Origin: Escherichia coli
GTDB lineage: Bacteria; Pseudomonadota; Gammaproteobacteria; Enterobacterales; Enterobacteriaceae
Reading direction: 5' to 3' (one strand)
Assembly: GCF_044324785.1 (NCBI RefSeq)
Contig: NZ_CP172127.1
Length of the DNA stretch: 64,000 nt
The number at the start of each line of letters is the position of its first letter. Within the stretch, counting starts at the first letter, position 1. Under the pieces are notes generated by a model. The model saw only the letters and a program-made list of their open reading frames with translations, was not told the origin of the DNA and did not search any database. Below, in pieces: positions 11,751 through 29,700 of this stretch. The translations under genes were made by a program, and so were the position numbers.

Positions 11751-12892
11751 GTCTGAATATGTTCTGGTTTTTACCGACCCATGGTGACGGGCATTATCTG
11801 GGAACGGAAGAAGGTTCACGCCCGGTTGATCACGGTTATCTGCAACAAATTGCGCAAGCGGCGGATCGTCTGGGCTATACCGGTGTGCTAATCCCAACGG
11901 GGCGATCGTGTGAAGATGCGTGGTTGGTGGCGGCGTCGATGATCCCGGTGACGCAGCGGCTGAAGTTTCTTGTCGCCCTGCGCCCCAGCGTAACCTCACC
12001 TACCGTTGCCGCCCGCCAGGCCGCCACGCTTGACCGTCTCTCTAATGGACGTGCGTTGTTTAACCTGGTCACAGGCAGCGATCCACAAGAACTGGCAGGC
12101 GACGGCGTGTTCCTTGATCATAGCGAGCGCTACGAAGCCTCGGCGGAATTTACCCAGGTCTGGCGGCGTTTATTGCTGGGCGAAACCGTCGATTTCAACG
12201 GTAAACATATTCATGTGCGGGGAGCCAAACTGCTCTTCCCGCCGATTCAACAGCCGTATCCTCCGCTTTACTTTGGCGGATCGTCAGACGTCGCCCAGGA
12301 GCTGGCGGCAGAACAAGTTGATCTCTACCTCACCTGGGGCGAACCGCCAGAACTGGTTAAAGAGAAAATCAAACAAGTGCGGGCGAAAGCTGCCGCGCAT
12401 GGACGCAAAATTCGTTTCGGTATTCGTCTGCATGTGATTGTTCGTGAAACCAACGACGAAGCGTGGCAGGCCGCCGAGCGGTTAATCTCGCATCTTGATG
12501 ATGAAACTATCGCCAAAGCACAGGCCGCATTCGCCCGGACGGATTCCGTAGGACAACAGCGGATGGCGGCGCTCCATAACGGCAAGCGCGACAATCTGGA
12601 GATCAGCCCCAATTTATGGGCGGGCGTTGGCTTAGTGCGCGGCGGTGCCGGGACGGCGCTAGTGGGCGATGGTCCGACGGTCGCCGCGCGGATCAACGAA
12701 TACGCTGCACTTGGCATCGACAGTTTTGTGCTTTCGGGCTACCCGCATCTGGAAGAAGCGTATCGGGTTGGCGAATTGCTGTTCCCGCATCTGGATGTCG
12801 CCATCCCGGAAATTCCCCAGCCGCAGCCGCTGAATCTGCAAGGCGAAGCGGTGGCAAATGATTTTATCCCCCGTAAAGTCGCGCAAAGCTAA
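11747..12892 (+). CDS. ssuD: FMNH2-dependent alkanesulfonate monooxygenase SsuD
   Basis: 381-aa luciferase-like monooxygenase; 4-bp overlap with ssuA. Confidence 0.95.
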
Positions 12893-12903
12893 GGAACACG
12901 ATA

Positions 12904-13695
12904 ATGGCAACGCCAGTGAAAAAGTGGTTATTGCGCGTTGCCCCCTGGTTTTTACCGGTGGGCATCGTGGCGGTGTGGCAACTGGCCTCCTCAGTTGGCT
13001 GGCTGTCAACACGTATTTTGCCCTCACCGGAAGGGGTGGTGATGGCGTTCTGGGCGCTCTCCGCCAGCGGCGAATTGTGGCAGCATCTGGCGATCAGCTC
13101 CTGGCGGGCGCTCATTGGCTTTTCAATTGGCGGATCGCTGGGCTTGATTCTGGGACTGATTAGCGGGCTGTCGCGCTGGGGAGAACGGCTGCTGGATACC
13201 TCAATTCAGATGTTGCGCAACGTGCCGCATCTGGCGCTGATCCCGCTGGTGATTTTGTGGTTTGGCATTGATGAATCCGCAAAAATCTTTCTGGTCGCAC
13301 TCGGTACGCTATTCCCCATTTATATCAACACCTGGCATGGCATCCGTAATATCGATCGCGGGCTGGTGGAGATGGCGCGTAGCTATGGATTATCCGGCAT
13401 ACCGCTGTTTATCCATGTGATCCTGCCTGGCGCCCTGCCCTCAATTATGGTCGGCGTGCGTTTTGCGTTGGGCCTGATGTGGCTGACGCTGATTGTTGCC
13501 GAAACCATTTCTGCCAATTCTGGCATTGGTTATCTGGCGATGAATGCGCGGGAGTTTTTGCAAACGGACGTGGTGGTGGTCGCCATTATTCTTTACGCCC
13601 TGCTCGGCAAACTGGCTGACGTCAGCGCACAGCTGTTAGAGCGCCTCTGGTTGCGCTGGAACCCGGCTTATCATTTGAAGGAGGCCACGGTATGA
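12904..13695 (+). CDS. ssuC: aliphatic sulfonate ABC transporter permease SsuC
   Basis: 263-aa multi-pass membrane protein with ABC permease-like sequence. Confidence 0.9.
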
Positions 13696-14459
13696 ATACT
13701 GCTCGTCTGAACCAGGGCACACCATTGTTGCTCAATGCAGTAAGCAAACATTACGCGGAAAATATCGTCCTGAACCAACTGGATTTACATATTCCGGCTG
13801 GTCAGTTTGTGGCGGTGGTGGGCCGCAGCGGTGGTGGCAAAAGTACCCTGCTGCGCCTGCTGGCAGGTCTGGAAACGCCAACCGCTGGCGATGTGTTAGC
13901 GGGCACCACACCGCTGGCTGAAATTCAGGAAGACACGCGAATGATGTTTCAGGATGCGCGTCTGCTGCCGTGGAAATCGGTGATTGATAACGTTGGGTTA
14001 GGCCTTAAAGGCCAGTGGCGCGATGCCGCGCGTCGGGCGCTGGCTGCAGTAGGACTGGAGAATCGCGCAGGGGAATGGCCTGCCGCACTTTCTGGCGGGC
14101 AGAAACAGCGTGTGGCGCTGGCAAGAGCGTTGATTCATCGACCGGGTTTATTATTGCTTGATGAACCGCTCGGGGCGCTGGACGCCCTGACTCGGCTCGA
14201 GATGCAGGATTTGATTGTGTCACTTTGGCAGGAGCACGGCTTTACCGTACTGTTGGTGACGCATGATGTGAGCGAAGCGGTAGCAATGGCTGACCGGGTG
14301 TTGTTAATTGAAGAGGGAAAAATTGGTCTGGATTTGACGGTGGATATCCCCCGTCCGCGCCGGTTAGGGTCGGTGCGATTAGCGGAGCTGGAAGCGGAAG
14401 TGTTGCAACGGGTGATGCAGCGTGGTGAATCTGAAACTCGCCTGAGAAAACAGGGGTAA
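13692..14459 (+). CDS. ssuB: aliphatic sulfonate ABC transporter ATPase SsuB
   Basis: 255 aa with Walker A (GRSGGGKST), ABC signature (LSGGQKQR) and Walker B (LLLDEP). Confidence 0.9.
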
Positions 14460-14500
14460 ATTCCCGAATGGCGGCGCTATTGCCGCCATTCGGTTATTTA

Positions 14501-17113
14501 TCAAGCCAGTGCTTTAGTTATCTTCTCGTACAGATCGCCAGAGAGATTTTCCAGCCCTTTCAACTGTTCCAGCGCCGCGCGCATTTTCTCCTGACGTTTG
14601 GCATCATATCGTTTCAGGCGAATCAGCGGCTCAATCAGGCGCGAAGCCACCTGCGGGTTACGGCTGTTGAGGTCGGTAAGCATTTCCACCAGGAACTGGT
14701 AACCGCTGCCATCTTCAGCATGGAACGCTGCCGGGTTGCTGCCCGCAAACGCGCCAATCAACGAACGAATACGGTTCGGGTTGCTCATGGTAAATGAGCG
14801 ATGCTGCAACAGACCGCGCACCGTCTCCAGAACATTCGCCGCCGGGCTGGTGGCTTGCAGGATAAACCATTTATCCATCACCAGACCATCCTGATGCCAC
14901 TTGTCGTCGTACTCCTGCATCAGCGCATCACGGCATGGCAACTGTGCAGCAACCGCCGCAGAAAGCGCCGCCAGCGCATCAGTCATATTGTTTGCTTCAT
15001 GGAACTGCTTGCTTACCAGCACGTCAGCCAGATGCGTTTCACCAAAAGCGAGGAAGCGCAGGCAGGCATTACGCAGAGTGCGTTTTGCAATATCTTCATG
15101 CTCAACACGGTACTCGCTCTGGTAATTCGCGTTGTAAATAGCCAGCAGCTCATCCGCCAGTTCAGTCGCCAGAGTACGGGTGAGTGCTTCGCGCACTTCG
15201 GCAATAGCAATCGGGTCGATGATATCGAACAGTTCCGCCATTTCATTGACGGAAGGCAGCGTCAGGATTTCTGCCGCCAGTGCCGGATCAATCTTCTCAT
15301 CAAGCAGCACTGCGCGGAAAGCGTCAGCCACATGCACCGGCAGAGACAGCGGCTGCCCTTGCTGATGACGGGCGACGTTGAGCTTGATGTAGGTTGCCAG
15401 CAGGCTTTGCGCCGCATCCCAGCGGGAGAAATCATTACGCGCATGGCGCATCAGGAAGGTCAGTTGCTGATCGCTCCACTTATATTCCAGTTTCACTGGC
15501 GCAGAGAATTCGCACAGCAGCGCAGGCACCGGCTGAAAGTAGACATTATCAAAGACAAAGGTCTGTTCCGCCTGGGTGACGTTCAGCACCGAATTCACCG
15601 GATGACCGCCTTTTTGCAACGGGATCACTTTGCCTTCGTTATCATACAATTCGATTGCAAACGGAATATGCAGCGGTTGTTTTTCTGCCTGATCCGGCGT
15701 AGCAGGCGTACGCTGGCTGATGGTCAGGGTGTACTGCTCGGTTTCTGGATTATAGTCGTCTTTGACGGTCACAACCGGCGTACCGGACTGGCTGTACCAA
15801 CGGCGGAAATGAGAGAGATCGACATTCGACGCATCTTCCATCGCCTGAACAAAGTCGTCGCAGGTTGCCGCGCTGCCATCATGGCGCTCGAAATAGAGCT
15901 GCATCCCTTTCTGGAAGTTTTCTTCGCCCAGCAGGGTGTGGATCATGCGAATCACTTCCGCGCCCTTCTCGTAAACGGTCAGGGTGTAGAAGTTGTTCAT
16001 CTCAATGACCATATCCGGGCGGATCGGGTGCGCCATCGGGCTGGCGTCTTCCGCAAACTGCAATCCGCGCATGGTGCGCACGTTGTTGATACGGTTTACC
16101 GCGCGAGAACCAAGGTCAGAGCTGAATTCCTGATCGCGGAACACGGTTAAACCTTCTTTCAGGCTGAGCTGGAACCAGTCGCGGCAGGTCACACGGTTAC
16201 CGGTCCAGTTGTGGAAATATTCGTGACCAATAACACGCTCAATATCGAGGTAATCTTTATCGGTGGCGGTGTCGGTACGGGCCAGCACATATTTGGAGTT
16301 AAAGATATTCAGACCCTTATTCTCCATTGCGCCCATATTAAAGAAGTCCACCGCGACGATCATATAGATGTCGAGGTCATACTCCAGGCCGAAGCGTTCT
16401 TCATCCCATTTCATGGAGTTTTTCAGCGAGGTCATCGCCCACGGCGCGCGGTCGAGGTTGCCGCGATCGACGTACAACTCCAGCGCCACTTCGCGACCAG
16501 AACGCGTGGTGAAGGTGTCGCGCAGCACGTCGAAGTCGCCTGCAACCAGCGCAAACAGGTAGCACGGTTTCGGGAACGGGTCCTGCCACTGTACCCAGTG
16601 ACGTCCGTTTTCCAGTTCGCCTTGCGCAACGCGGTTACCGTTGGAAAGCAGGAAGGGATATTTGGTTTTATCGGCAATAATTTTGGTGGTAAAACGCGCC
16701 AGCACGTCCGGGCGGTCAAGATAATACGTAATATGGCGGAAACCTTCGGCTTCACACTGAGTGCAAAGCGCATCGCCTGACTGATAAAGCCCTTCCAGCG
16801 CGGTATTCGTCGCCGGGCTAATTTCATTAACGATCTTAAGCGTAAAACGCTCCGGCAAATTACTGATGACCAGTGCGCCATCTTCTTCTTTCCAGGCGGT
16901 CCACGGCTCATCATTAATATGAACAGAAACCAGTTTAAGATCTTCGCCATCAAGACGAAGCGGAGCATCTGATGCACCATGACGGACAGCCTGGCTGACC
17001 GCGGTAACGACCGTCTTTTGCGCGTCCAGGTCAAAGGTCAAGTCAATATCAGTAATCTGGTAATCCGGCGCACGATAATCGTGACGGTATTTGGCTTGTG
17101 GCTGTTGAGTCAT
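14501..17113 (-). CDS. pepN: aminopeptidase N
   Basis: 870-aa M1 metallopeptidase with HEYFHNWTG zinc motif and GAMEN motif. Confidence 0.95.
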   Translation of the reverse strand: MTQQPQAKYRHDYRAPDYQITDIDLTFDLDAQKTVVTAVSQAVRHGASDAPLRLDGEDLKLVSVHINDEPWTAWKEEDGALVISNLPERFTLKIVNEISPATNTALEGLYQSGDALCTQCEAEGFRHITYYLDRPDVLARFTTKIIADKTKYPFLLSNGNRVAQGELENGRHWVQWQDPFPKPCYLFALVAGDFDVLRDTFTTRSGREVALELYVDRGNLDRAPWAMTSLKNSMKWDEERFGLEYDLDIYMIVAVDFFNMGAMENKGLNIFNSKYVLARTDTATDKDYLDIERVIGHEYFHNWTGNRVTCRDWFQLSLKEGLTVFRDQEFSSDLGSRAVNRINNVRTMRGLQFAEDASPMAHPIRPDMVIEMNNFYTLTVYEKGAEVIRMIHTLLGEENFQKGMQLYFERHDGSAATCDDFVQAMEDASNVDLSHFRRWYSQSGTPVVTVKDDYNPETEQYTLTISQRTPATPDQAEKQPLHIPFAIELYDNEGKVIPLQKGGHPVNSVLNVTQAEQTFVFDNVYFQPVPALLCEFSAPVKLEYKWSDQQLTFLMRHARNDFSRWDAAQSLLATYIKLNVARHQQGQPLSLPVHVADAFRAVLLDEKIDPALAAEILTLPSVNEMAELFDIIDPIAIAEVREALTRTLATELADELLAIYNANYQSEYRVEHEDIAKRTLRNACLRFLAFGETHLADVLVSKQFHEANNMTDALAALSAAVAAQLPCRDALMQEYDDKWHQDGLVMDKWFILQATSPAANVLETVRGLLQHRSFTMSNPNRIRSLIGAFAGSNPAAFHAEDGSGYQFLVEMLTDLNSRNPQVASRLIEPLIRLKRYDAKRQEKMRAALEQLKGLENLSGDLYEKITKALA

Positions 17114-18749: not shown

Positions 18750-20150
18750 ATGAGCGTTGTGCCTGTAGCCGACGTACTCCAGGGCCGCGTAGCCGTTGAC
18801 AGCGAAGTCACCGTACGCGGATGGGTACGTACCCGCCGAGATTCAAAAGCTGGCATCTCCTTCCTCGCCGTTTATGACGGTTCCTGCTTTGATCCTGTAC
18901 AGGCTGTCATCAATAATTCTCTGCCCAATTACAATGAAGACGTCCTGCGTCTGACCACCGGTTGCTCGGTCATTGTGACGGGTAAAGTCGTGGCGTCGCC
19001 GGGCCAGGGGCAACAATTTGAAATTCAGGCCAGCAAGGTTGAAGTTGCTGGTTGGGTTGAAGATCCAGACACTTACCCGATGGCGGCAAAACGCCACAGC
19101 ATTGAGTATCTGCGTGAAGTCGCTCACCTGCGTCCGCGCACAAACCTGATTGGTGCCGTCGCGCGCGTTCGCCATACGCTGGCGCAGGCGCTGCATCGCT
19201 TCTTTAACGAGCAGGGATTCTTCTGGGTTTCAACGCCACTGATTACTGCGTCTGATACCGAAGGGGCTGGCGAAATGTTCCGCGTTTCTACGCTGGATCT
19301 GGAAAACCTGCCGCGTAACGATCAGGGCAAAGTGGATTTCGACAAAGACTTCTTTGGTAAAGAGTCTTTCCTGACCGTATCTGGCCAGTTGAACGGCGAA
19401 ACCTACGCTTGCGCATTATCCAAAATTTATACCTTCGGCCCGACTTTCCGTGCTGAAAACTCCAACACCAGCCGTCACCTGGCGGAATTCTGGATGCTGG
19501 AGCCGGAAGTGGCGTTTGCTAACCTGAACGATATCGCGGGTCTGGCTGAAGCCATGCTGAAATATGTCTTCAAAGCGGTTCTCGAAGAACGCGCTGACGA
19601 CATGAAATTCTTCGCTGAACGCGTAGATAAAGATGCCGTTTCACGTCTGGAACGCTTCATTGAAGCCGATTTTGCGCAGGTGGATTACACCGACGCAGTG
19701 ACCATTCTCGAAAACTGCGGCAGGAAGTTTGAAAACCCGGTTTACTGGGGCGTTGATCTCTCTTCTGAGCATGAGCGTTATCTGGCGGAAGAACACTTTA
19801 AAGCACCGGTAGTGGTTAAAAACTATCCGAAAGATATTAAAGCGTTCTATATGCGCCTTAACGAAGACGGTAAAACCGTTGCGGCTATGGACGTTCTGGC
19901 TCCGGGCATCGGTGAGATCATTGGTGGCTCCCAGCGTGAAGAACGTCTGGACGTGCTGGACGAGCGTATGCTGGAAATGGGCCTGAATAAAGAAGATTAC
20001 TGGTGGTATCGCGATCTGCGTCGCTACGGTACTGTTCCGCATTCAGGTTTCGGTCTTGGTTTTGAACGCCTGATTGCTTACGTAACTGGTGTGCAAAACG
20101 TGCGTGATGTGATTCCGTTCCCACGTACTCCGCGTAACGCCAGCTTCTAA
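18750..20150 (+). CDS. asnS: asparaginyl-tRNA synthetase
   Basis: 466 aa from the ATG at 18750 ([13 protein letters not shown]); class II aaRS sequence ending [10 protein letters not shown]. Confidence 0.95.
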
Positions 20151-20164
20151 TTTAGCGTCTTCAA

Positions 20165-20191
20165 GAGCCAGCACCCGCTGGCTCTTTTTTT
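20165..20191 (+). terminator. rho-independent terminator downstream of asnS
   Basis: GAGCCAGC-ACCC-GCTGGCTC hairpin followed by a T7 tract. Confidence 0.75.
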
Positions 20192-20262
20192 ATCCTTTCT
20201 GTCAAGTTATCTGTTTGTTAAGTCAAGCAATCTATTTGCAACCCCGCCATAACGATCATCCT

Positions 20263-20292
20263 GTTACGGAATATTACACTGCAATATTTTCG
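20263..20292. promoter_or_regulatory. distal OmpR binding site (F4-like) upstream of ompF
   Basis: GTTACGGAATATTACACTGCAATATTTTCG about 450-490 bp upstream of the ompF ATG, resembling the recalled F4 site. Confidence 0.5.
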
Positions 20293-20542
20293 CACAAAAA
20301 ATAATCCGCATTCTTATTGCGGATTAGTTTTTTCTTAGCTGATAGCACAATTTTCATACTATCTTTTGGCGTTCTGGATGTCTGAACGAGGATTTAGTGC
20401 CAGGTCGATAAAGTTTCCATCAGAAACAAAATTTCCGTTTAGTTAATTTAAATATAAGGAAATCATATAAATAGATAAATATTGCTGTAAATATCATCAC
20501 GCTTCTATGGAAATATGACGGTGTTCACAAAGTTCCTTAAAT

Positions 20543-20605
20543 TTTACTTTTGGTTACATATTTTTTCTTTTTGAAACCAAATCTTTATCTTTGTAGCACT
20601 TTCAC
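20543..20605 (+). promoter_or_regulatory. OmpR binding sites F1-F3 and ompF promoter region
   Basis: Three tandem about 20-bp boxes TTTACTTTTGGTTACATATTT / TTTCTTTTTGAAACCAAATCT / TTATCTTTGTAGCACTTTCAC about 150-210 bp upstream of the ompF ATG, matching the classical OmpR F1-F2-F3 arrangement. Confidence 0.7.
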
Positions 20606-20752
20606 GGTAGCGAAACGTTAGTTTGAATGGAAAGATGCCTGCAGACACATAAAGACACCAAACTCTCATCAATAGTTCCGTAAATTTTTATTGACAGAAC
20701 TTATTGACGGCAGTGGCAGGTGTCATAAAAAAAACCATGAGGGTAATAAATA

Positions 20753-21826
20753 ATGATGAAGCGCAATATTCTGGCAGTGATCGTCCCTGCTCTGTTAGTA
20801 GCAGGTACTGCAAACGCTGCAGAAATCTATAACAAAGATGGCAATAAAGTAGATCTGTACGGTAAAGCTGTCGGTCTGCATTATTTTTCTAAAGACAATG
20901 GTGTAAACAGTTACGGCGGAAACGGCGACAAAACTTATGCCCGTCTTGGTTTTAAAGGGGAAACACAAATCAATTCCGATCTGACCGGCTACGGTCAGTG
21001 GGAATATAACTTCCAGGGTAACAACTCTGAAGGCGCTGATGCCCAGAAAGGTAACAAAACTCGTCTGGCATTCGCAGGTCTGAAATTCGCTGATGCGGGT
21101 TCTATCGACTACGGTCGTAACTACGGTGTGGTTTACGACGCACTGGGTTACACCGATATGCTGCCTGAGTTTGGCGGTGACACGGCATACAGCGATGACT
21201 TCTTCGTTGGTCGTGTAGGCGGCGTTGCTACCTATCGTAACTCCAACTTCTTCGGTCTGGTTGACGGCCTGAACTTTGCCGTTCAGTACCTGGGCAAAAA
21301 CGAACGTGCTGGTATTCCTGAGCGTTCCAACGGCGACGGCGTCGGTGGCTCTATCAGCTACGAATTCGAAGGCTTTGGTATCGTAGGTGCTTACGGTGCA
21401 GCAGACCGTACCGACGCCCAGGAAGCCGAATTCCGCGGTCAGGGTAAAAAAGCTGAACAGTGGGCAACTGGTCTGAAGTATGACGCGAACAACATCTACC
21501 TGGCAGCGAACTACGGTGAAACCCGTAACGCTACGCCAATTGAAGGCGGCTTCGCCAACAAAACGCAAGACGTTCTGTTAGTTGCGCAATACCAGTTCGA
21601 TTTCGGTCTGCGTCCGTCCATCGCTTACACCAAATCTAAAGCGAAAGACGTAGAAGGTATCGGTGATGTTGATCTGGTGAACTACTTTGAAGTGGGCGCA
21701 ACCTACTACTTCAACAAAAACATGTCCACCTATGTTGACTACATCATCAACCAGATCGATTCTGACAACAAACTGGGCGTAGGTTCTGACGACACCGTTG
21801 CTGTGGGTATCGTTTACCAGTTCTAA
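20753..21826 (+). CDS. ompF: outer membrane porin OmpF (357-aa allele)
   Basis: Signal peptide [22 protein letters not shown]; trimeric porin sequence ending VGIVYQF; conserved position between asnS and aspC. Confidence 0.9.
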
Positions 21827-21852
21827 TAGCACACCTCTTTGTTAAATGCCGA

Positions 21853-21881
21853 AAAAACAGGACTTTGGTCCTGTTTTTTTT
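21853..21881 (+). terminator. rho-independent terminator downstream of ompF
   Basis: AACAGGAC-TTTG-GTCCTGTT hairpin followed by a T8 tract. Confidence 0.8.
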
Positions 21882-22010
21882 ATGCCTTCCAGAGCAATCT
21901 CACGTCTTGCAAAAACAGCCTGCGTTTTCATCAGTAATAGTTGGAATTTTGTAAATCTCCCGTTACCCTGATAGCGGACTTCCCTTCTGTAACCATAATG
22001 GAACCTCGTC

Positions 22011-23201
22011 ATGTTTGAGAACATTACCGCCGCTCCTGCCGACCCGATTCTGGGCCTGGCCGATCTGTTTCGTGCCGATGAACGTCCCGGCAAAATTAAC
22101 CTCGGGATTGGTGTCTATAAAGATGAGACGGGCAAAACCCCGGTACTGACCAGCGTGAAAAAGGCTGAACAGTATTTGCTCGAAAATGAAACCACCAAAA
22201 ATTACCTCGGCATTGACGGCATCCCTGAATTTGGTCGCTGCACTCAGGAACTGCTGTTTGGTAAAGGTAGCGCCCTGATCAATGACAAACGTGCTCGCAC
22301 GGCACAGACTCCGGGTGGCACTGGCGCACTACGCGTGGCTGCCGATTTCCTGGCAAAAAATACCAGCGTTAAGCGTGTGTGGGTGAGCAACCCAAGCTGG
22401 CCGAACCATAAGAGCGTCTTTAACTCTGCAGGTCTGGAAGTTCGTGAATACGCTTATTATGATGCGGAAAATCACACCCTTGACTTCGATGCACTGATTA
22501 ACAGCCTGAACGAAGCTCAGGCTGGCGACGTAGTGCTGTTCCATGGCTGCTGCCATAACCCAACCGGTATCGACCCTACGCTGGAACAATGGCAGACACT
22601 GGCACAACTTTCCGTTGAGAAAGGCTGGTTACCGCTGTTTGACTTCGCTTACCAGGGTTTTGCCCGTGGTCTGGAAGAAGATGCTGAAGGACTGCGCGCT
22701 TTCGCGGCTATGCATAAAGAGCTGATTGTTGCCAGTTCCTACTCTAAAAACTTTGGCCTGTACAACGAGCGTGTTGGCGCTTGTACTCTGGTTGCTGCCG
22801 ACAGTGAAACCGTTGATCGCGCATTCAGCCAAATGAAAGCGGCGATTCGCGCTAACTACTCTAACCCACCAGCACACGGCGCTTCTGTTGTTGCCACCAT
22901 CCTGAGCAACGATGCATTACGTGCGATTTGGGAACAAGAGCTGACTGATATGCGCCAGCGTATTCAGCGTATGCGTCAGTTGTTCGTCAATACGCTGCAG
23001 GAAAAAGGCGCAAACCGCGACTTCAGCTTTATCATCAAACAGAACGGCATGTTCTCCTTCAGTGGCCTGACAAAAGAACAAGTGCTGCGTCTGCGCGAAG
23101 AGTTTGGCGTGTATGCTGTTGCTTCTGGTCGCGTAAACGTGGCCGGGATGACACCAGATAATATGGCTCCGCTGTGCGAAGCGATTGTGGCAGTGCTGTA
23201 A
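22011..23201 (+). CDS. aspC: aspartate aminotransferase
   Basis: 396-aa PLP aminotransferase containing the SYSKNFGLY motif with the PLP lysine. Confidence 0.95.
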
Positions 23202-23216
23202 GCGTTAAAAACAATG

Positions 23217-23244
23217 AAGCCCGCTTGAAAAGCGGGCTTTTTTA
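23217..23244. terminator. bidirectional hairpin terminator between convergent aspC and ycbL
   Basis: AAGCCCGCTT-GAAA-AGCGGGCTTTTTT; the stem is flanked by A-run and T-run and could terminate both strands. Confidence 0.7.
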
Positions 23245-23251
23245 TGCGCTT

Positions 23252-23899
23252 TTACCAGACGGGCATTTCGTCTTGCAGGAAGGGATTATGCAGGCGCTCA
23301 TAACCAAGTGTGGATAATGGTCCGTGACCCGGAATAAATGTCACGTCATCCCCCAGTGGCAGCAACTTATCTTTGATTGAAGAAATCAGTTGATTATGAT
23401 CGCCACGCGGGAAGTCACTGCGCCCTACTCCGCCTTTGAAAATAACGTCGCCAGAAATCAGCAGCTTTGCCCGATCATCAAAAAACACGACATGACCCGG
23501 CGTATGCCCAGGGCAATGTAACACCTGTAAAGCCACATTCCCTATGCTGATGGTATCGCCTTCGTTCAGCCAACGATCCGGCGTCAGCGGCTGGCACTCT
23601 TCCAGACCAAACATACGACTTTGCGCAGGCAAGCCTTGCAGCCAGAACTCATCTTCTTTTTCCGGGCCAAAAACCGGCACGCCGTAATGTTGCGCCAGTT
23701 CCGCCGCTGCACCAACGTGGTCCAGATGACCATGCGTCAGCAGGATCTGCATCAGTGTCAGGCCGCTGGCGTCAACTTCCTGTTTGATTTTTTCCGCATC
23801 GCCGCCAGGATCGACCAGTGCGGCCAGGCGGGTTTGTTCACACCAGATCAATGAACAGTTCTGGGAGAATGCGGTGACCGGAATAATACGATAGTTCAT
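23252..23899 (-). CDS. ycbL: metallo-beta-lactamase fold hydrolase (glyoxalase II-like) YcbL
   Basis: 215 aa with THGHLDH metal-binding motif. Confidence 0.9.
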
Positions 23900-23925
23900 A
23901 CTGCCCCTGTTTCGTTAAGCAATTG

Positions 23926-24474
23926 CTACCAGTGCCGTGCTGGCCCGGTATCAATATGCACAAAGTTACTACGTGGGTAATATCCTACACCACCTGCGCG
24001 CATAGATAACGCGGCTTTGCGAATATTGCTTAACGCGATACCTTCAATATGGAAATCCATCGCCTGCCCTTTCGTGTGATAGCTTTTCTTCGCTACTCCA
24101 CGGCTGCGGGCGCGTAGTTCATTGTTGGTATCAATGGAACGATAACCGGAAATGAGTTGCACCGGTTTGCGGGTGCCTAATAACCCTTGCAGGCGATACA
24201 ACTGATCGAACAATCCTGGGTCGATGGACTTTATTTTGTTCGCGCGGTAATCGCGGAAAAAATGGTTAAGTTTTGCCAATTCTTCCTGAATATAGCCTCT
24301 GCCATCGAAAAACTCCGCTTTGATTGACTCTCCGGTATGAAGATTATTGAGTGTCAAAATGCGCGGGCGTGGGGTAGAGAGTGTTGCAAACGCAGGGGTC
24401 GGCAGGATGGCGGCACCGAGTGCAACGCCACCAAGCGCCAGCAATTTGCGGCGATTAGCGTCGAATTTGTCCAT
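23926..24474 (-). CDS. mepK: peptidoglycan LD-endopeptidase MepK (YcbK)
   Basis: About 182 aa with twin-arginine-like signal (RRKLLALGGVALGAAILPTPAFA); start trimmed to MDKFDANRR at 24474. Confidence 0.85.
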   Translation of the reverse strand: MDKFDANRRKLLALGGVALGAAILPTPAFATLSTPRPRILTLNNLHTGESIKAEFFDGRGYIQEELAKLNHFFRDYRANKIKSIDPGLFDQLYRLQGLLGTRKPVQLISGYRSIDTNNELRARSRGVAKKSYHTKGQAMDFHIEGIALSNIRKAALSMRAGGVGYYPRSNFVHIDTGPARHW

Positions 24475-24654
24475 GATAATCAAGTCTACAGGTCAATGTT
24501 ATCGTTTATATGCACTTCTGGCGCACAAGAGGCACCTTAACCGCCCGTAAAGCAGACGTCAAGATGACTCAACCCCAGCAGTGACGGGGGCTGCAGAGAA
24601 TCGCCCCCGATCATGCTAATTATTACGACAACTGATTTCCCCGAACTGCTTCAT

Positions 24655-26502
24655 TTACCTGATTAATTGTTCCGCTTTCGATACGATTTGCGAGCTGGAT
24701 CGCGCAGGCAGATCATAATTGTAAATATCTGTACGATACTGGGTACGACCATCTGCACCAACAAATGCCGTCAGGTAGTAGAGATTTACCGGAATCGACT
24801 GCCGAATATTGACGTAACGCGTATCGCCCTGCTTCAGCGCATCAGAAATACGTTTGTCATTCCAGCCTGCATCCTGCAACAGCATATTCGCCAGATCGGA
24901 AGCTTTATTCACTCGTACACAGCCTGAGCTCAATGCGCGTGTATCACGCTTGAACAGATTGTGGTTCGGCGTGTCATGCAAATAAATGGCCTCTGAACTC
25001 GGCATATTGAATTTATAGCGCCCCAGCGAGTTCCGTGGGCCTGGAGCCTGCTGGAAGCGGAACGGTAAATTCGAGGCCGTGATTGTAGACCAGTCAACCT
25101 GCCATGGGTCAATCGCTTCTCTGCTGTTCCAGCCGCGCATCACCGTATAGCCATGGCTTTCGAGATATCCCGGATCGTTGCGCACTTTCGGCAGAATATC
25201 TTTGCGTGCCAGAGTTGGGGGTACGTTCCACGGCGGGTTTACCACTACGTTGTTAAGTGCACTGCTCATCATCGGCGTTTTGCGATCGGGGCGACCAACA
25301 ATGACTCGCGAATCCAGCACCTGATTGCCGTTCTGATAGTAGACCAGCGAATAGGCCGGAATGTTAACCATGATCCCGGTAGAAAGCTCTGTTGGCAGCA
25401 AGCGCAATCGCTGGATGTTGAGTGCCAACACGCCAGCACGCTGGGCGGGCGTTACGTTTAACCAGTCACGCGTTGCCGGGCCAATAGCGCCATCTGCTCC
25501 CAATCCTTGCCATGCCTGAAAACGTTTAACGGCTTCCACCAGTTCATTATCGTAGGCGGCACGAACGGCAGGCGCAGGTTTACTACGAGACGTCGTTTGC
25601 TTGTCCATCGGCTTAGTTTCTGCTGTTTCAACAGTAACAGCGGATGGGCTGACTACTGCGTCAGTTGGCGTGTCATCGCCAGGGAGAGTAATTTTTGGCC
25701 CCCCGTCCAACATGCCTGTGCGTTGCAATATTTCGCGCAACGCCGGTACGTCGTTACTCCACTGCCCTGGGCGCAACGTTGCTTTACCGGTCAGTTGAGG
25801 CCACGGTTTGGTGTCACTGAGTAAGGCCAGTAACGATTCATGCATCGCCGCATATTGCGGATGCTGCGGTGCCAGTCCTGCAACAAACGTCGGCAATTGA
25901 CCTTTATCCAGCGTCAGCTGCCATTGGTTAATCACCGAAAGCGGCGGCGTTGCAAGCGCATAAGGTTTACTGCTATATAGCCAGCGAGTGCCTTTGACCG
26001 GAATATTTGCAATGAAATGGAGATAGCCCATCATCGCATCAGAGAGCACGACGTCGCGTGCCATCCCGTTAACACCAGGATCGGTCAGTAACTCTACCCA
26101 TTTATTAAACTGCGGCTGGAAACCGGCAATCGCCACCTCTGCCAGCTGTTGCTGGAAGGCTTTAACAGCATCACGGTTTTCCCACATGGGTTGCATATCG
26201 CGTGCGGCATACAACAGTTGAAGCTGGTTAAGATAAACCGGCTTGTAACCTGCGGGTAATTGAGATTCGATTTGCGTGCGGGCTTTTTCTGCCGCACCTT
26301 CAGGCAATGGCTGGATCCCCGCCATTATTGCCGTGGCTTGCGCCTGCGGCAGTGCCTCGCCCTGTTCACTGACAGCCACCGGGCTGTCGCCAGGGATTAC
26401 TTCAGGCTCATCGGCCTGCGCATTGAACAGTGGAGCGAATGTTACGGCCAGGCACAAACTGATTGCCGACAGCCGACGACCACACATCATATTAAGCAAC
26501 AT
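24655..26502 (-). CDS. ldtD: L,D-transpeptidase LdtD (YcbB)
   Basis: 615 aa with signal peptide and YkuD-type L,D-transpeptidase catalytic motif (HDTP ... SSGCVRV). Confidence 0.9.
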
Positions 26503-26762
26503 CCCTTGCCCCCTGTTTTTATCATACTCTGAATAGCCAGGCTGTTATTTTACGACTTGCCTGTACAACGCCAATACTCACGAAAGTATGACGAGCAAGC
26601 CTGTTACTCATCAGGCTTATCTTCAGTATATAAACGCCGATACGTTTTTACATAACCTAATGTAAAGAAGTTTAAAGAAAAGCGCGCCGTAATGTGCCAC
26701 TTTTTTAGTGCAGAAACGGAGTTTTCGGAAAAAGAAAAGGCGGCATTGCTGCCGCCTTCATT

Positions 26763-29700
26763 TTAACTCGCCTGGGAAGGCGCTTCGTCACTTCCTGGAA
26801 GCGTTTCAGGGAGTTGCGGCGCAAATCCTCGCAGGCCGACGACGTGAACGTGTTCGGTATTCTGGAAGACTTTACGTACCAGTTTATAGGTGGTGCCTTT
26901 TTCCGGACTGATATTTTCCGGCGCTGCGATGATGAGCTGCATTTGCAAACGTTCACACAATTCAAACAGCGTGGCGATAGAACGAGCATCCAGTCGCGCT
27001 GCTTCATCGAGGAACAGCAGGCGGCAAGGAGAGATATCTTTACCGCGCAGGCGGCGAGATTCATCTTCCCAGCTTTGTACCACCATCACCAGAATCGACA
27101 TACCGGTACCAATCGCCTCACCGGTCGACAATGCACCAGACTCTGCACGCAACCAGCCATCAGAACCACGGTTAACCTCAACTTCCATTTCCAGATAGTT
27201 GCGGTAATCCAGCAGTTCTTCGCCAATGGTCTGCGGCGTGCGCTGCCCCATATCAATCTGCGGATTAAGACGCTGATACAATTTCGCCAGTGCTTCTGAG
27301 AAGGTCAGACGGTTGCTGTTAAACAGATCCTGATGCTGCTCGTGCTGTTCAGAGAGCACATCCAGCAGCATGGCGTGCGTTTCACGCACGTTCACGTTCA
27401 GACGTACGCTGTTCACCTGACCAAACGATACGTTCTGCAACCCCTGGTTGAGCATACGGATACGGTTCTGTTCGCGCTGAATGGTTTTGCGAATAATGTT
27501 CGCCACGCTGCGGGAACTGATCGCCAGTTTCTGTTCACGGGAGGTTAACTCTTCGGTCAAACGGCTAAGTTCGATCTCCATCTGTTCGATAGCTTCCACC
27601 GGATCATCGGTACGAATAATATCCTGACGAATACGTTCACGCAGATGCTGATAAACCGCCACGAAGAACTGAATTTTACGTTCCGGACGTTTTGGATCTT
27701 CCGACATCCGCAGCACGTCGCGCAGATGTTCGTTATCCGCCACCGCCAGACGCAGCGCACCTAACGCCTTATCCGACATGGAACGCAAATCATCAGCGGA
27801 GAGATAAGCCAGCTCACGACGGTGTAAGCGACGCTCAACGCCGTTATCTTTCACCATGCGCATGACTGCACACCAGCCCGCTTTCGCGGTCACTACCTGC
27901 TCGCGCATCTCAAAGTAATCACGCTCCAGCTTGCGTAGTTTGCGGGTCAGATTGTCCATCTCCGCTTCGCAGAAGGTAAGCGCTTTTTCCAGTTGATTGC
28001 GGCGGGACCGGTTATTGCTCAGCTGCGCATGCAACTCGTCACGGCGAATACGCGCCCGCTCTTCTGCCCCGCTATCAGCACGCACGCCGATATCCTGCAA
28101 TTCACGTTGCAGATCGTTGAGTAGCTCTTTTTTGGTGTCGTAAGAACTTTTCAGCGAAGCCAGCACCTGGTTGTACTGACTCAACTGCGCTGCGTGACCG
28201 CGCAACGCTTCGCGAGCGCGGGTACGCTCCGCTTCCGCCTGTTCCAGACGTTCACGCAGTTTTTCGTTGAGATCGCTGTTACCGCTAAGCATTTCTGCCG
28301 AGTCAGAATAGCTAAAGTGCGCACGACGCTGCACCACTTCCGTCAGGGCAAACGCCTGCTGACGGGCATCGCGCTGCATCTGCTGAGAGTACGCGTAATC
28401 TTCTTTTAACTGTTCGAACTGTTCCGGGTCGCTCTGCAATACCGAAACGATCGGTTCCAGTTTCGCCAGTTGATTACCGAACTGCTGAACAAAACGCGCG
28501 GCTTCCTGGGCTTCATCCAGACGTTCGCGGATTTCCTCGACGCGATCCGCCAGGCTGTCATCAGCCAACAGGTTGAGACGCGGCAGAATGCGGTTCAGCG
28601 CCGTAACGCCTTCTTTCGCCTGCTCAAACTGAATGCGCTGCTGCTGGTTATCATTTTCATGATTACTCAACGCCCGCTCCAGTTCGACGCGACGGCTGTT
28701 CAGTTGACGGATTTCTGCTTCCGGGTCAGACTCAAACGCCACCGCCAGATGACTACCGATAAAGCGGCTGAACGCCTGATGCAGACGCTGGGTTTTCTGT
28801 ACATCAAAGGAGAGCGTGGCGAAGCGTTCGGAAAGCACTTCACGCTCAGCATGGAGACTTTCAATACGGCTTTCACGCGCAGCACGACCAAACAGCGGCA
28901 CTTCCGGGAAACGTGAATAACGCCACTGACGATCGGCGATTTTCACCACCACCGCTTTTTCCAGCTCATCAACGCTGAACACGCTGTCATCGAATGACTG
29001 CGGATCCCCTTCGATCAAATAGAGATCTTCCGGGCAATCGCTCAAGCCTTCCAGGTGTTCGGTTACCTGTGACAGATCTGGCACCACGATGGCGTGGCGT
29101 GACGGGCCATACAGCGCCGAGAAGTACGGCGCATCCTCCAGGCTAACGTCGTCATAAATTTCTGACAGCAGCACACCACCAAAACGCTCCGCCAGTGCGT
29201 TCAGACGCTGATCTTCAGAGCCGCCAGGCTGGCTTAAACGTTCGATCTCTTCATCGACAGCGTTTTTGCGCGCGCCCACTTCATCGCGTTCAACAATGGC
29301 TTCGCGCTCACGCTCCAGCAGCTGTTGCAGATATTCGGTGACGTCCTGGCTGGAGGAGAACTCTTCGCCGCACTGTTCACTCAACTGGTTGAGACTGTTT
29401 TGCGCTGCCAGCCAAACCGGTGCACGCTGCATCAAACTCTGAATGCGAGACTGCAGCTGTTCCTGCTCCTGGCGCAGTGCCATACGCTCTTCGCGGGCGT
29501 TAGACACGCTATCGGAAAGAGAGGCAATACGCGCTTCCAGCTCCTGATGCAGGGCTTCCAGTTCGTCGATATCAAAATTCTTGCCCTGACGTTTGCAGAA
29601 ATCTGCCAGCAGGCGTTCGGCTTCTTGCTGTTCGCGCAGACGCTGTTCCAGTTCGCTTAAGCGCATCCGCAACGGCTGAACCTGCTCTGCCAGGTGACGC

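Follow-up and report, generated by a model that had tools for sequence, protein, structure and literature searches.

The closest described relatives of the porin gene analysed here are OmpF of E. coli K-12 (P02931; PDB 2OMF, 1OPF, 3HW9 and 4GCP) and the OmpF proteins of E. coli strains IAI39, SMS-3-5, CE10, N3 and AR_0013, referred to as 'Variant 10' or the 'CE10' group. In OmpF, R167 together with K80 is reported to set the electric field of a 'pre-orientation region' above the constriction and to affect antibiotic translocation, and R167, which is replaced by leucine in OmpC, distinguishes K-12 OmpF from OmpC, although it stands outside any formal family definition (PMC7730927). The surface loops serve as contact sites for several agents: phage K20 requires OmpF L5, L6 and L7 according to Traurig and Misra, cited in PMC12032242, a difference in L4 blocks the docking of a CdiA-like effector (bioRxiv 10.64898/2026.05.07.723447), and loop polymorphism in OmpC restricts contact-dependent inhibition (CDI) (PMC5056734).

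Up to now, the ompF gene of E. coli has been described as evolving in a mosaic manner, with CE10 representing one structural type and with residues gained or lost around L6 (bioRxiv 10.1101/2021.09.21.461324). In the work of Camprubi-Font et al. 2019 (PMC6691688, Table S5), the exact residue combination of the protein described below corresponds to OmpF 'Variant 10', found in 5 of 58 sequences, and mosaics confined to L1 are represented by variants 7-9. This behaviour resembles that of E. coli ompC, lamB, fhuA and ompA, Yersinia ompF and Neisseria porB, in which a conserved barrel carries hypervariable loops swapped by local recombination, with few loop types whose distribution is discordant with the strain phylogeny. 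Unlike those mosaic genes, ompF has few classes (5 groups as compared to at least 220 OmpC sequences) and its L1-L6 region moves as one block, though L1-only recombinants exist. In a clinical context, three carbapenem-resistant isolates (Elppa2/5/9) were described by Yang et al. 2022 (PMC9062692) as carrying 'OmpF DEL264-269', a change termed novel and classified as deleterious by PROVEAN.

The window, meaning the whole stretch of 64,000 nucleotides of E. coli DNA analysed here, was described in a first-pass annotation as carrying an ompF allele of 357 amino acids with several short patches changed relative to K-12. Assignment of the gene to ompF was confirmed by the NCBIfam model NF007446 'porin OmpF' (751.9 bits, cutoff 583) and by the locus, since the gene lies between asnS (18750-20150) and aspC (22011-23201), with gloC on the opposite strand, in the open reading frames of the window. 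The same asnS-ompF-aspC order is annotated in MG1655, C41(DE3), AR_0013, IAI39 and N3. Scores for other porins fall below their cutoffs (PhoE 486, cutoff 599; OmpC 465, cutoff 484), and the Pfam family PF00267 Porin_1 is matched with 456.9 bits. The gene and its control elements are located as follows.

20543..20602, plus strand: OmpR-binding sites F1-F2-F3 of the ompF promoter, by exact 60-mer match.
20753..21826, plus strand: ompF coding sequence, 357 codons and stop, from the list of open reading frames and the NCBIfam equivalog; its protein is RefSeq WP_000977905.1.
20753..20818, plus strand: signal peptide of 22 amino acids, identical to K-12, with the mature protein starting AEIYNK; mature OmpF chains in the PDB align from residue 23, and codons 1-30 are without differences.
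21852..21881, plus strand: probable intrinsic terminator, a hairpin CAGGAC-TTTG-GTCCTG followed by a run of T, read directly from the sequence 3' of ompF.

The 60-mer at 20543-20602 corresponds to the F1-F2-F3 region of the K-12 promoter. The entire interval 20504-20752, comprising the proximal regulatory region and the 5' UTR, has zero differences from MG1655; ompF in the window is intact, and from this promoter identity its normal regulation would be expected. Reading it as a pseudogene was ruled out by the intact ORF and a regulatory region identical to that of K-12, and an assembly or sequencing artefact by the presence of the identical sequence in 486 complete genome records. A simple consensus scan for promoters and terminators returned nothing useful near ompF and did not flag the hairpin at 21852-21881. 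Further upstream, a cluster of five differences from K-12 is present in the distal ompF region (20279-20301), only some of which are found in AR_0013; this cluster lies near the distal OmpR site F4. In the aspC-gloC intergenic region, at window position 23225, about 170 bases of K-12 are missing from the window and from AR_0013, and this K-12 extra is probably an intergenic insertion of REP/BIME type.

The window protein was compared with MG1655 OmpF (362 amino acids, from NC_000913.3, confirmed against PDB chain 3HW9_A), to which it is identical in 336 of 363 alignment columns (92.6%). The two differ by 20 substitutions, a one-residue insertion in L4 and a six-residue gap in L6, a net difference of -5 amino acids. 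The codon table adds 51 synonymous changes, all in codons 31-262 of the window ORF, whereas the C-terminal 92 residues are those of K-12 with one synonymous difference. Thus, the first-pass annotation was right in that the allele has 357 residues with several changed patches and a remainder essentially identical to K-12, and all three peptides that it quoted are present; its list of patches was real albeit incomplete, lacking G48D, E51V, M60K, T99K, Y112F, V115A, F118I, Y205F, the one-residue insertion and the 51 synonymous changes.

Differences were placed on an AF2 model, obtained with an alignment of 85 porins at 60-94% identity (pLDDT 92.9, pTM 0.88), and loop boundaries were taken from its DSSP assignment in the mature numbering of the window allele. 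DSSP assigns 16 strands, with L7 at 279-281 and L8 at 312-325 (mature numbering), and the model superimposes on the OmpF crystal structures 1GFP, 2ZFG and 1OPF with a TM of 0.98 and an rmsd of 1.0 A (Foldseek). The predicted fold is a beta-barrel of 16 strands, with loop L3 reaching into the lumen. Features of the protein are distributed along the gene as listed.

20891..20935, plus strand: loop L1, mature 25-39, with G26D, E29V and M38K (G48D, E51V and M60K in precursor numbering); AF2 secondary structure and codon table.
21017..21055, plus strand: loop L2, mature 67-79, with T77K (T99K) and the latch residue E71 kept; AF2 secondary structure and codon table.
21086..21106, plus strand: periplasmic end of strand 4, turn T2 and start of strand 5, with the conservative changes Y90F, V93A and F96I (Y112F, V115A and F118I); AF2 model and codon table.
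21125..21211, plus strand: constriction loop L3, mature 103-131, protein unchanged with seven synonymous differences; D113, E117, G119 and D121 kept.
21293..21337, plus strand: loop L4, mature 159-173, NER-DTARR of K-12 becoming NERAGIPER, with a one-residue insertion and with D164, T165, A166 and R167 replaced (R167E) and R168 kept; by alignment.
21407..21448, plus strand: loop L5, mature 197-210, with N198D, L199A, Q203E, P204F, L205R and N207Q (K-12 numbering).
21527..21559, plus strand: loop L6, mature 237-247, PITNKFTNTSGF of K-12 corresponding to PIEGGF, six residues shorter as compared to K-12.
21548..21826, plus strand: 3' part of ompF encoding strands 12-16, L7 and L8, K-12-like with one synonymous difference (21787).

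Of the 20 substitutions, 16 are located in extracellular loops, and so are both indels, the distribution being three in L1, one in L2, four and the insertion in L4, six in L5, and two in L6 together with the gap, where the six K-12 residues TNKFTN are without counterpart. This corresponds to 16 of 63 loop codons as against 4 of 171 other codons of the divergent part of the gene (Fisher p = 3e-7), so that the presumed location of the changes in surface loops was upheld by structure mapping and a scatter over the barrel strands is not what was seen. The four exceptions are conservative, three of them located around turn T2 and the fourth, Y205F, at the periplasmic end of strand 8; the phenylalanine of Y90F and the alanine of V93A agree with the consensus of other genera. 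L3, L7 and L8 have a protein sequence unchanged from K-12. Of the residues listed in PMC7730927 and PMC5056734, those of the constriction (K16, R42, R82 and R132, facing D113, E117 and D121), the OmpF-specific K80 and the L2 latch E71 are all kept as in K-12, and G119 is kept as well.

The most notable single change is R167E in L4, where a glutamate aligns with the vestibule arginine of OmpF and R168 is kept, a placement around the L4 insertion that comes from sequence alignment. Loop charges change by +1 in L1, +1 in L2, -1 in L4, -1 in L5 and -2 in L6, with a sum of -2, and the net charge is -14 for window OmpF as compared to -12 for K-12. Overall, the gene shares with K-12 ompF its locus, signal peptide, 16-strand barrel, L3, basic ladder, L2 latch, L7, L8, C-terminal third and OmpR F1-F3 region, and it differs in L1, L2, L4 (one residue longer), L5, L6 (six residues shorter), the replacement of R167 by glutamate and an internal block diverged by about 10-24% in DNA.

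This internal block accounts for nearly the whole of the difference between the two genes and has the following extent.

20845..21545 (class-wide start 20872), plus strand: deeply divergent mosaic block of about 700 bp, delimited by identity bins, codon table and dS.

The block holds 107 of the 108 differing alignment columns of ompF, the remaining one being at 21787. Its first position, 20845, is a private synonymous T common to the window and strain N3 only, and the first class-wide difference occurs at 20872. In bins of 100 nucleotides, identity to K-12 is 76-96% across 20835-21616 and 98-100% on either side. By the method of Nei-Gojobori, dS between the window and K-12 amounts to 0.49 in the block, 0.016 in the 3' part of ompF, 0.047 in asnS and 0.040 in aspC, while K-12 and E. 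albertii are separated by 0.40-0.52 in asnS and aspC and by 0.54 in the ompF block. Hence, divergence in the block exceeds that of the neighbouring sequence about tenfold and is about as large as that of a sister species, E. albertii. The first-pass annotation had implied loop substitutions on a K-12-like background, which does not hold, as the differences came as one block of about 700 bp with a dS of 0.49 as compared to 0.04-0.05 in the flanks.

Exchange within the block is indicated by ompF of strain 67-1 (WP_000977907.1), which has the L1 residues of the window class (D48, V51, K60) and V115I on a K-12-type gene, and this sequence shows that L1 and L2 are separated by a recombination breakpoint. 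A wider comparison of window positions 10000-34000 revealed no complete E. coli genome close over the 24 kb, the best being N3 with 99.0% and the others at most 98.4%. N3 is near-identical to the window at about 18750-29620 and about 3% diverged at 12840-16750, and such switches of identity mark the chromosome around ompF, too, as a patchwork produced by recombination. In addition, a 2.4 kb ENA contig encodes a protein of 348 amino acids whose N-terminal ~100 residues are OmpC-like and whose remainder is the window OmpF allele; it represents either a chimeric assembly or a genuine ompC/ompF hybrid.

The survey of related strains, which the first-pass annotation had proposed, places the window gene in a common and already described natural allele class, and the allele is not new. 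The protein is identical to the OmpF proteins of IAI39, N3 and AR_0013 (RefSeq WP_000977905.1), which makes it a member of the class by exact identity, and the gene is one synonymous base apart from each of theirs. SMS-3-5 and CE10 are 99.9% identical to the window over a 781-bp block, the only part compared in their case. No difference of substance thus separates the window allele from OmpF of IAI39, SMS-3-5, CE10, N3 and AR_0013. The distribution of identity to the block over 5,426 complete E. coli genomes is bimodal: 486 records reach 99% or more, 4,936 lie at 80-90%, and the range of 90-99% is empty. Carriers make up about 9% of complete E. coli genomes. Within the class, gene identity is 99.4-100%. 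The exact protein sequence is present on at least 1,000 contigs of a public collection, and its 90% cluster has 544 member sequences. Carriers were obtained from humans, cattle, chickens, dogs, wild birds, a pangolin, river water and wastewater, and they include, besides IAI39, SMS-3-5 and CE10, strains with ST405-like names such as O102:H6. IAI39, SMS-3-5 and CE10 belong to phylogroup F.

Taken together, these data make it very probable that the window encodes an intact general trimeric porin OmpF of the IAI39/SMS-3-5/CE10 minority class, a mosaic gene in which an old block alters the surface and the core is kept. In this mosaic, the 5' end, the 3' third and the flanks are ordinary E. coli sequence, and codons ~40-265 are an anciently diverged block, which split from the K-12-type block at about the time when E. 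coli split from E. albertii. According to this proposal, the block either persisted as an old polymorphism or came from an Escherichia-like donor outside the sampled species, and homologous recombination has passed it from one E. coli lineage to another. With barrel, L3 constriction and basic ladder as in K-12, basic pore function is expected to be kept, with the five loops L1, L2, L4, L5 and L6 presenting a different and overall more acidic predicted surface (+2 over L1 and L2, -4 over L4-L6). To phages, colicins, CDI effectors and antibodies that bind OmpF, such a surface could present an altered epitope. At the pore mouth, the orientation of charged solutes or beta-lactams may be modestly changed, and R167E could shift selectivity.

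A different account follows from Yang et al. 2022, in which a recent adaptive deletion (264-269) together with point mutations would have arisen under antibiotic selection and would lower the entry of carbapenems and other beta-lactams. It draws on the report of DEL264-269 in three carbapenem-resistant isolates (PMC9062692) and on the finding that elppa9 (NZ_CP083481.1) carries the window allele class, with 99.4% identity over the gene. However, the short form of L6 (PIxGGFANK) is the usual state in alignments of OmpF from E. albertii, the cryptic Escherichia lineage SCPM-O-B-8794, several Citrobacter, Dryocola, Superficieibacter and Salmonella, and TNKFTN is exceptional. Because the short L6 is common to the outgroups, parsimony indicates that K-12-type L6 gained six residues, and the six-residue gap is most likely an insertion in the K-12 lineage and not a loss in the window allele. 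The 'short deletion' of the first-pass annotation hence stands only as a length difference from K-12, with L6 six residues shorter. Furthermore, the supposed deletion is accompanied by 51 synonymous changes in one block, and the allele occurs in 486 records among 5,426 genomes, with sources such as cattle, birds and river water and with old references such as IAI39 and SMS-3-5 among its carriers. In elppa9 itself, ompF contains an extra 4-bp CGAA tandem duplication (equivalent to window position 21506) and is annotated in RefSeq as 'frameshifted'; this lesion alone explains the porin loss. The paper on elppa9 ascribed its carbapenem resistance to the L6 'deletion' instead. A recent origin under antibiotic selection is therefore highly improbable, and the alleles of Elppa2/5/9 (same class, confirmed for elppa9) carry as a 'new deletion' what is read here as the outgroup state.

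Regarding the source of the block, its recent import from a named neighbour such as E. albertii or Citrobacter would agree with the divergence of the block from K-12, which equals the between-species divergence of the flanking genes, and with one Dryocola sp. OmpF having the near-identical L4 motif NERAGIPTR. Nevertheless, every sampled candidate is farther from the block than K-12 is, with dS of 0.86 for E. albertii, 0.65 for cryptic SCPM-O-B-8794 and 1.03 for Citrobacter, and with 72-82% nucleotide identity for Dryocola, which renders such an import quite improbable. No donor was found among GTDB species representatives, where the Escherichia among the matches listed were E. albertii and a single cryptic lineage labelled 'E. 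coli', with E. fergusonii, E. marmotae and E. ruysiae outside them. That lineage, represented in GTDB by 'Escherichia coli' SCPM-O-B-8794, is itself at species-level distance from K-12 (asnS/aspC dS 0.32-0.45, a cryptic clade), and its OmpF combines a short L6 with a K-12-like L4. As to what maintains the block, it may have entered once by recombination and persisted by descent as a neutral passenger, its weakly constrained loops diverging faster, without selection on receptor or permeability properties. Such a history accords with a pairwise NG86 dN/dS between the window and K-12 of 0.15 in L1, L2, L4, L5 and L6 as compared to 0.03 elsewhere in the block, with the near-zero diversity of the class, and with F112, A115, F205, D221/A222 and the short L6 being the consensus of other enterobacterial genera. 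The loop value does not exceed 1, as expected for diversifying selection, although as a selection test this pairwise ratio is uninformative with loop dS near saturation at 1.15; it is compatible with relaxed constraint and hitch-hiking in one recombined block. Selection by phages, colicins or antibiotics, which the first-pass annotation had invoked as the driver of the loop variation, is accordingly not demonstrated by the pairwise comparison. Against purely neutral persistence, both edges of the block fall within ompF and are flanked by ordinary E. coli sequence, partial recombinants with only L1 exist (67-1; variants 7-9), the published mosaic pattern over lineages favours repeated and retained exchange (bioRxiv 10.1101/2021.09.21.461324), and the same pattern is found in ompC, lamB and fhuA, for which receptor effects have been demonstrated. 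On balance, a neutral passenger is rather unlikely. The fuller selective scenario is put forward only tentatively and is judged unlikely as a whole: in it, the block would be a polymorphism as old as the Escherichia splits (dS ~0.5) or an introgression from an unsampled lineage, would have been retained by frequency-dependent selection exerted by OmpF-targeting phages, colicins or CDI, and R167E with the short L6 would confer measurably different phage, colicin or beta-lactam susceptibility.

On the functional side, an effect of the loop changes, including R167E at the pore mouth, on phages, colicins or antibiotics is plausible. In the searched literature, no phage, colicin or permeability phenotype of the window allele was found, and neither the BASEL paper nor the EAEC 042 genome paper mentions it.

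For the old mosaic ompF proposed here, the value of the analysis lies mainly in a correction, as alignments to K-12 make a common allele resemble a set of new loop mutations and a deletion. In this guise of mutation and deletion the allele has been published as a possible mechanism of carbapenem resistance, which the outgroup, synonymous-site and frequency data contradict. Since the class is old and widespread and its L6 is in the outgroup state, associations of 'OmpF del264-269', E51V and M60K with resistance or virulence likely reflect lineage. If R167E and the changes in L4-L6 were to alter recognition by phages, colicins or CDI systems or the entry of beta-lactams, this would be useful for the choice of hosts in phage therapy and for the interpretation of porin genotypes; even then, known principles would be extended and no new kind of system would be added. 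What is of interest is the ancient mosaic block, a pattern that has already been published for porins of E. coli.
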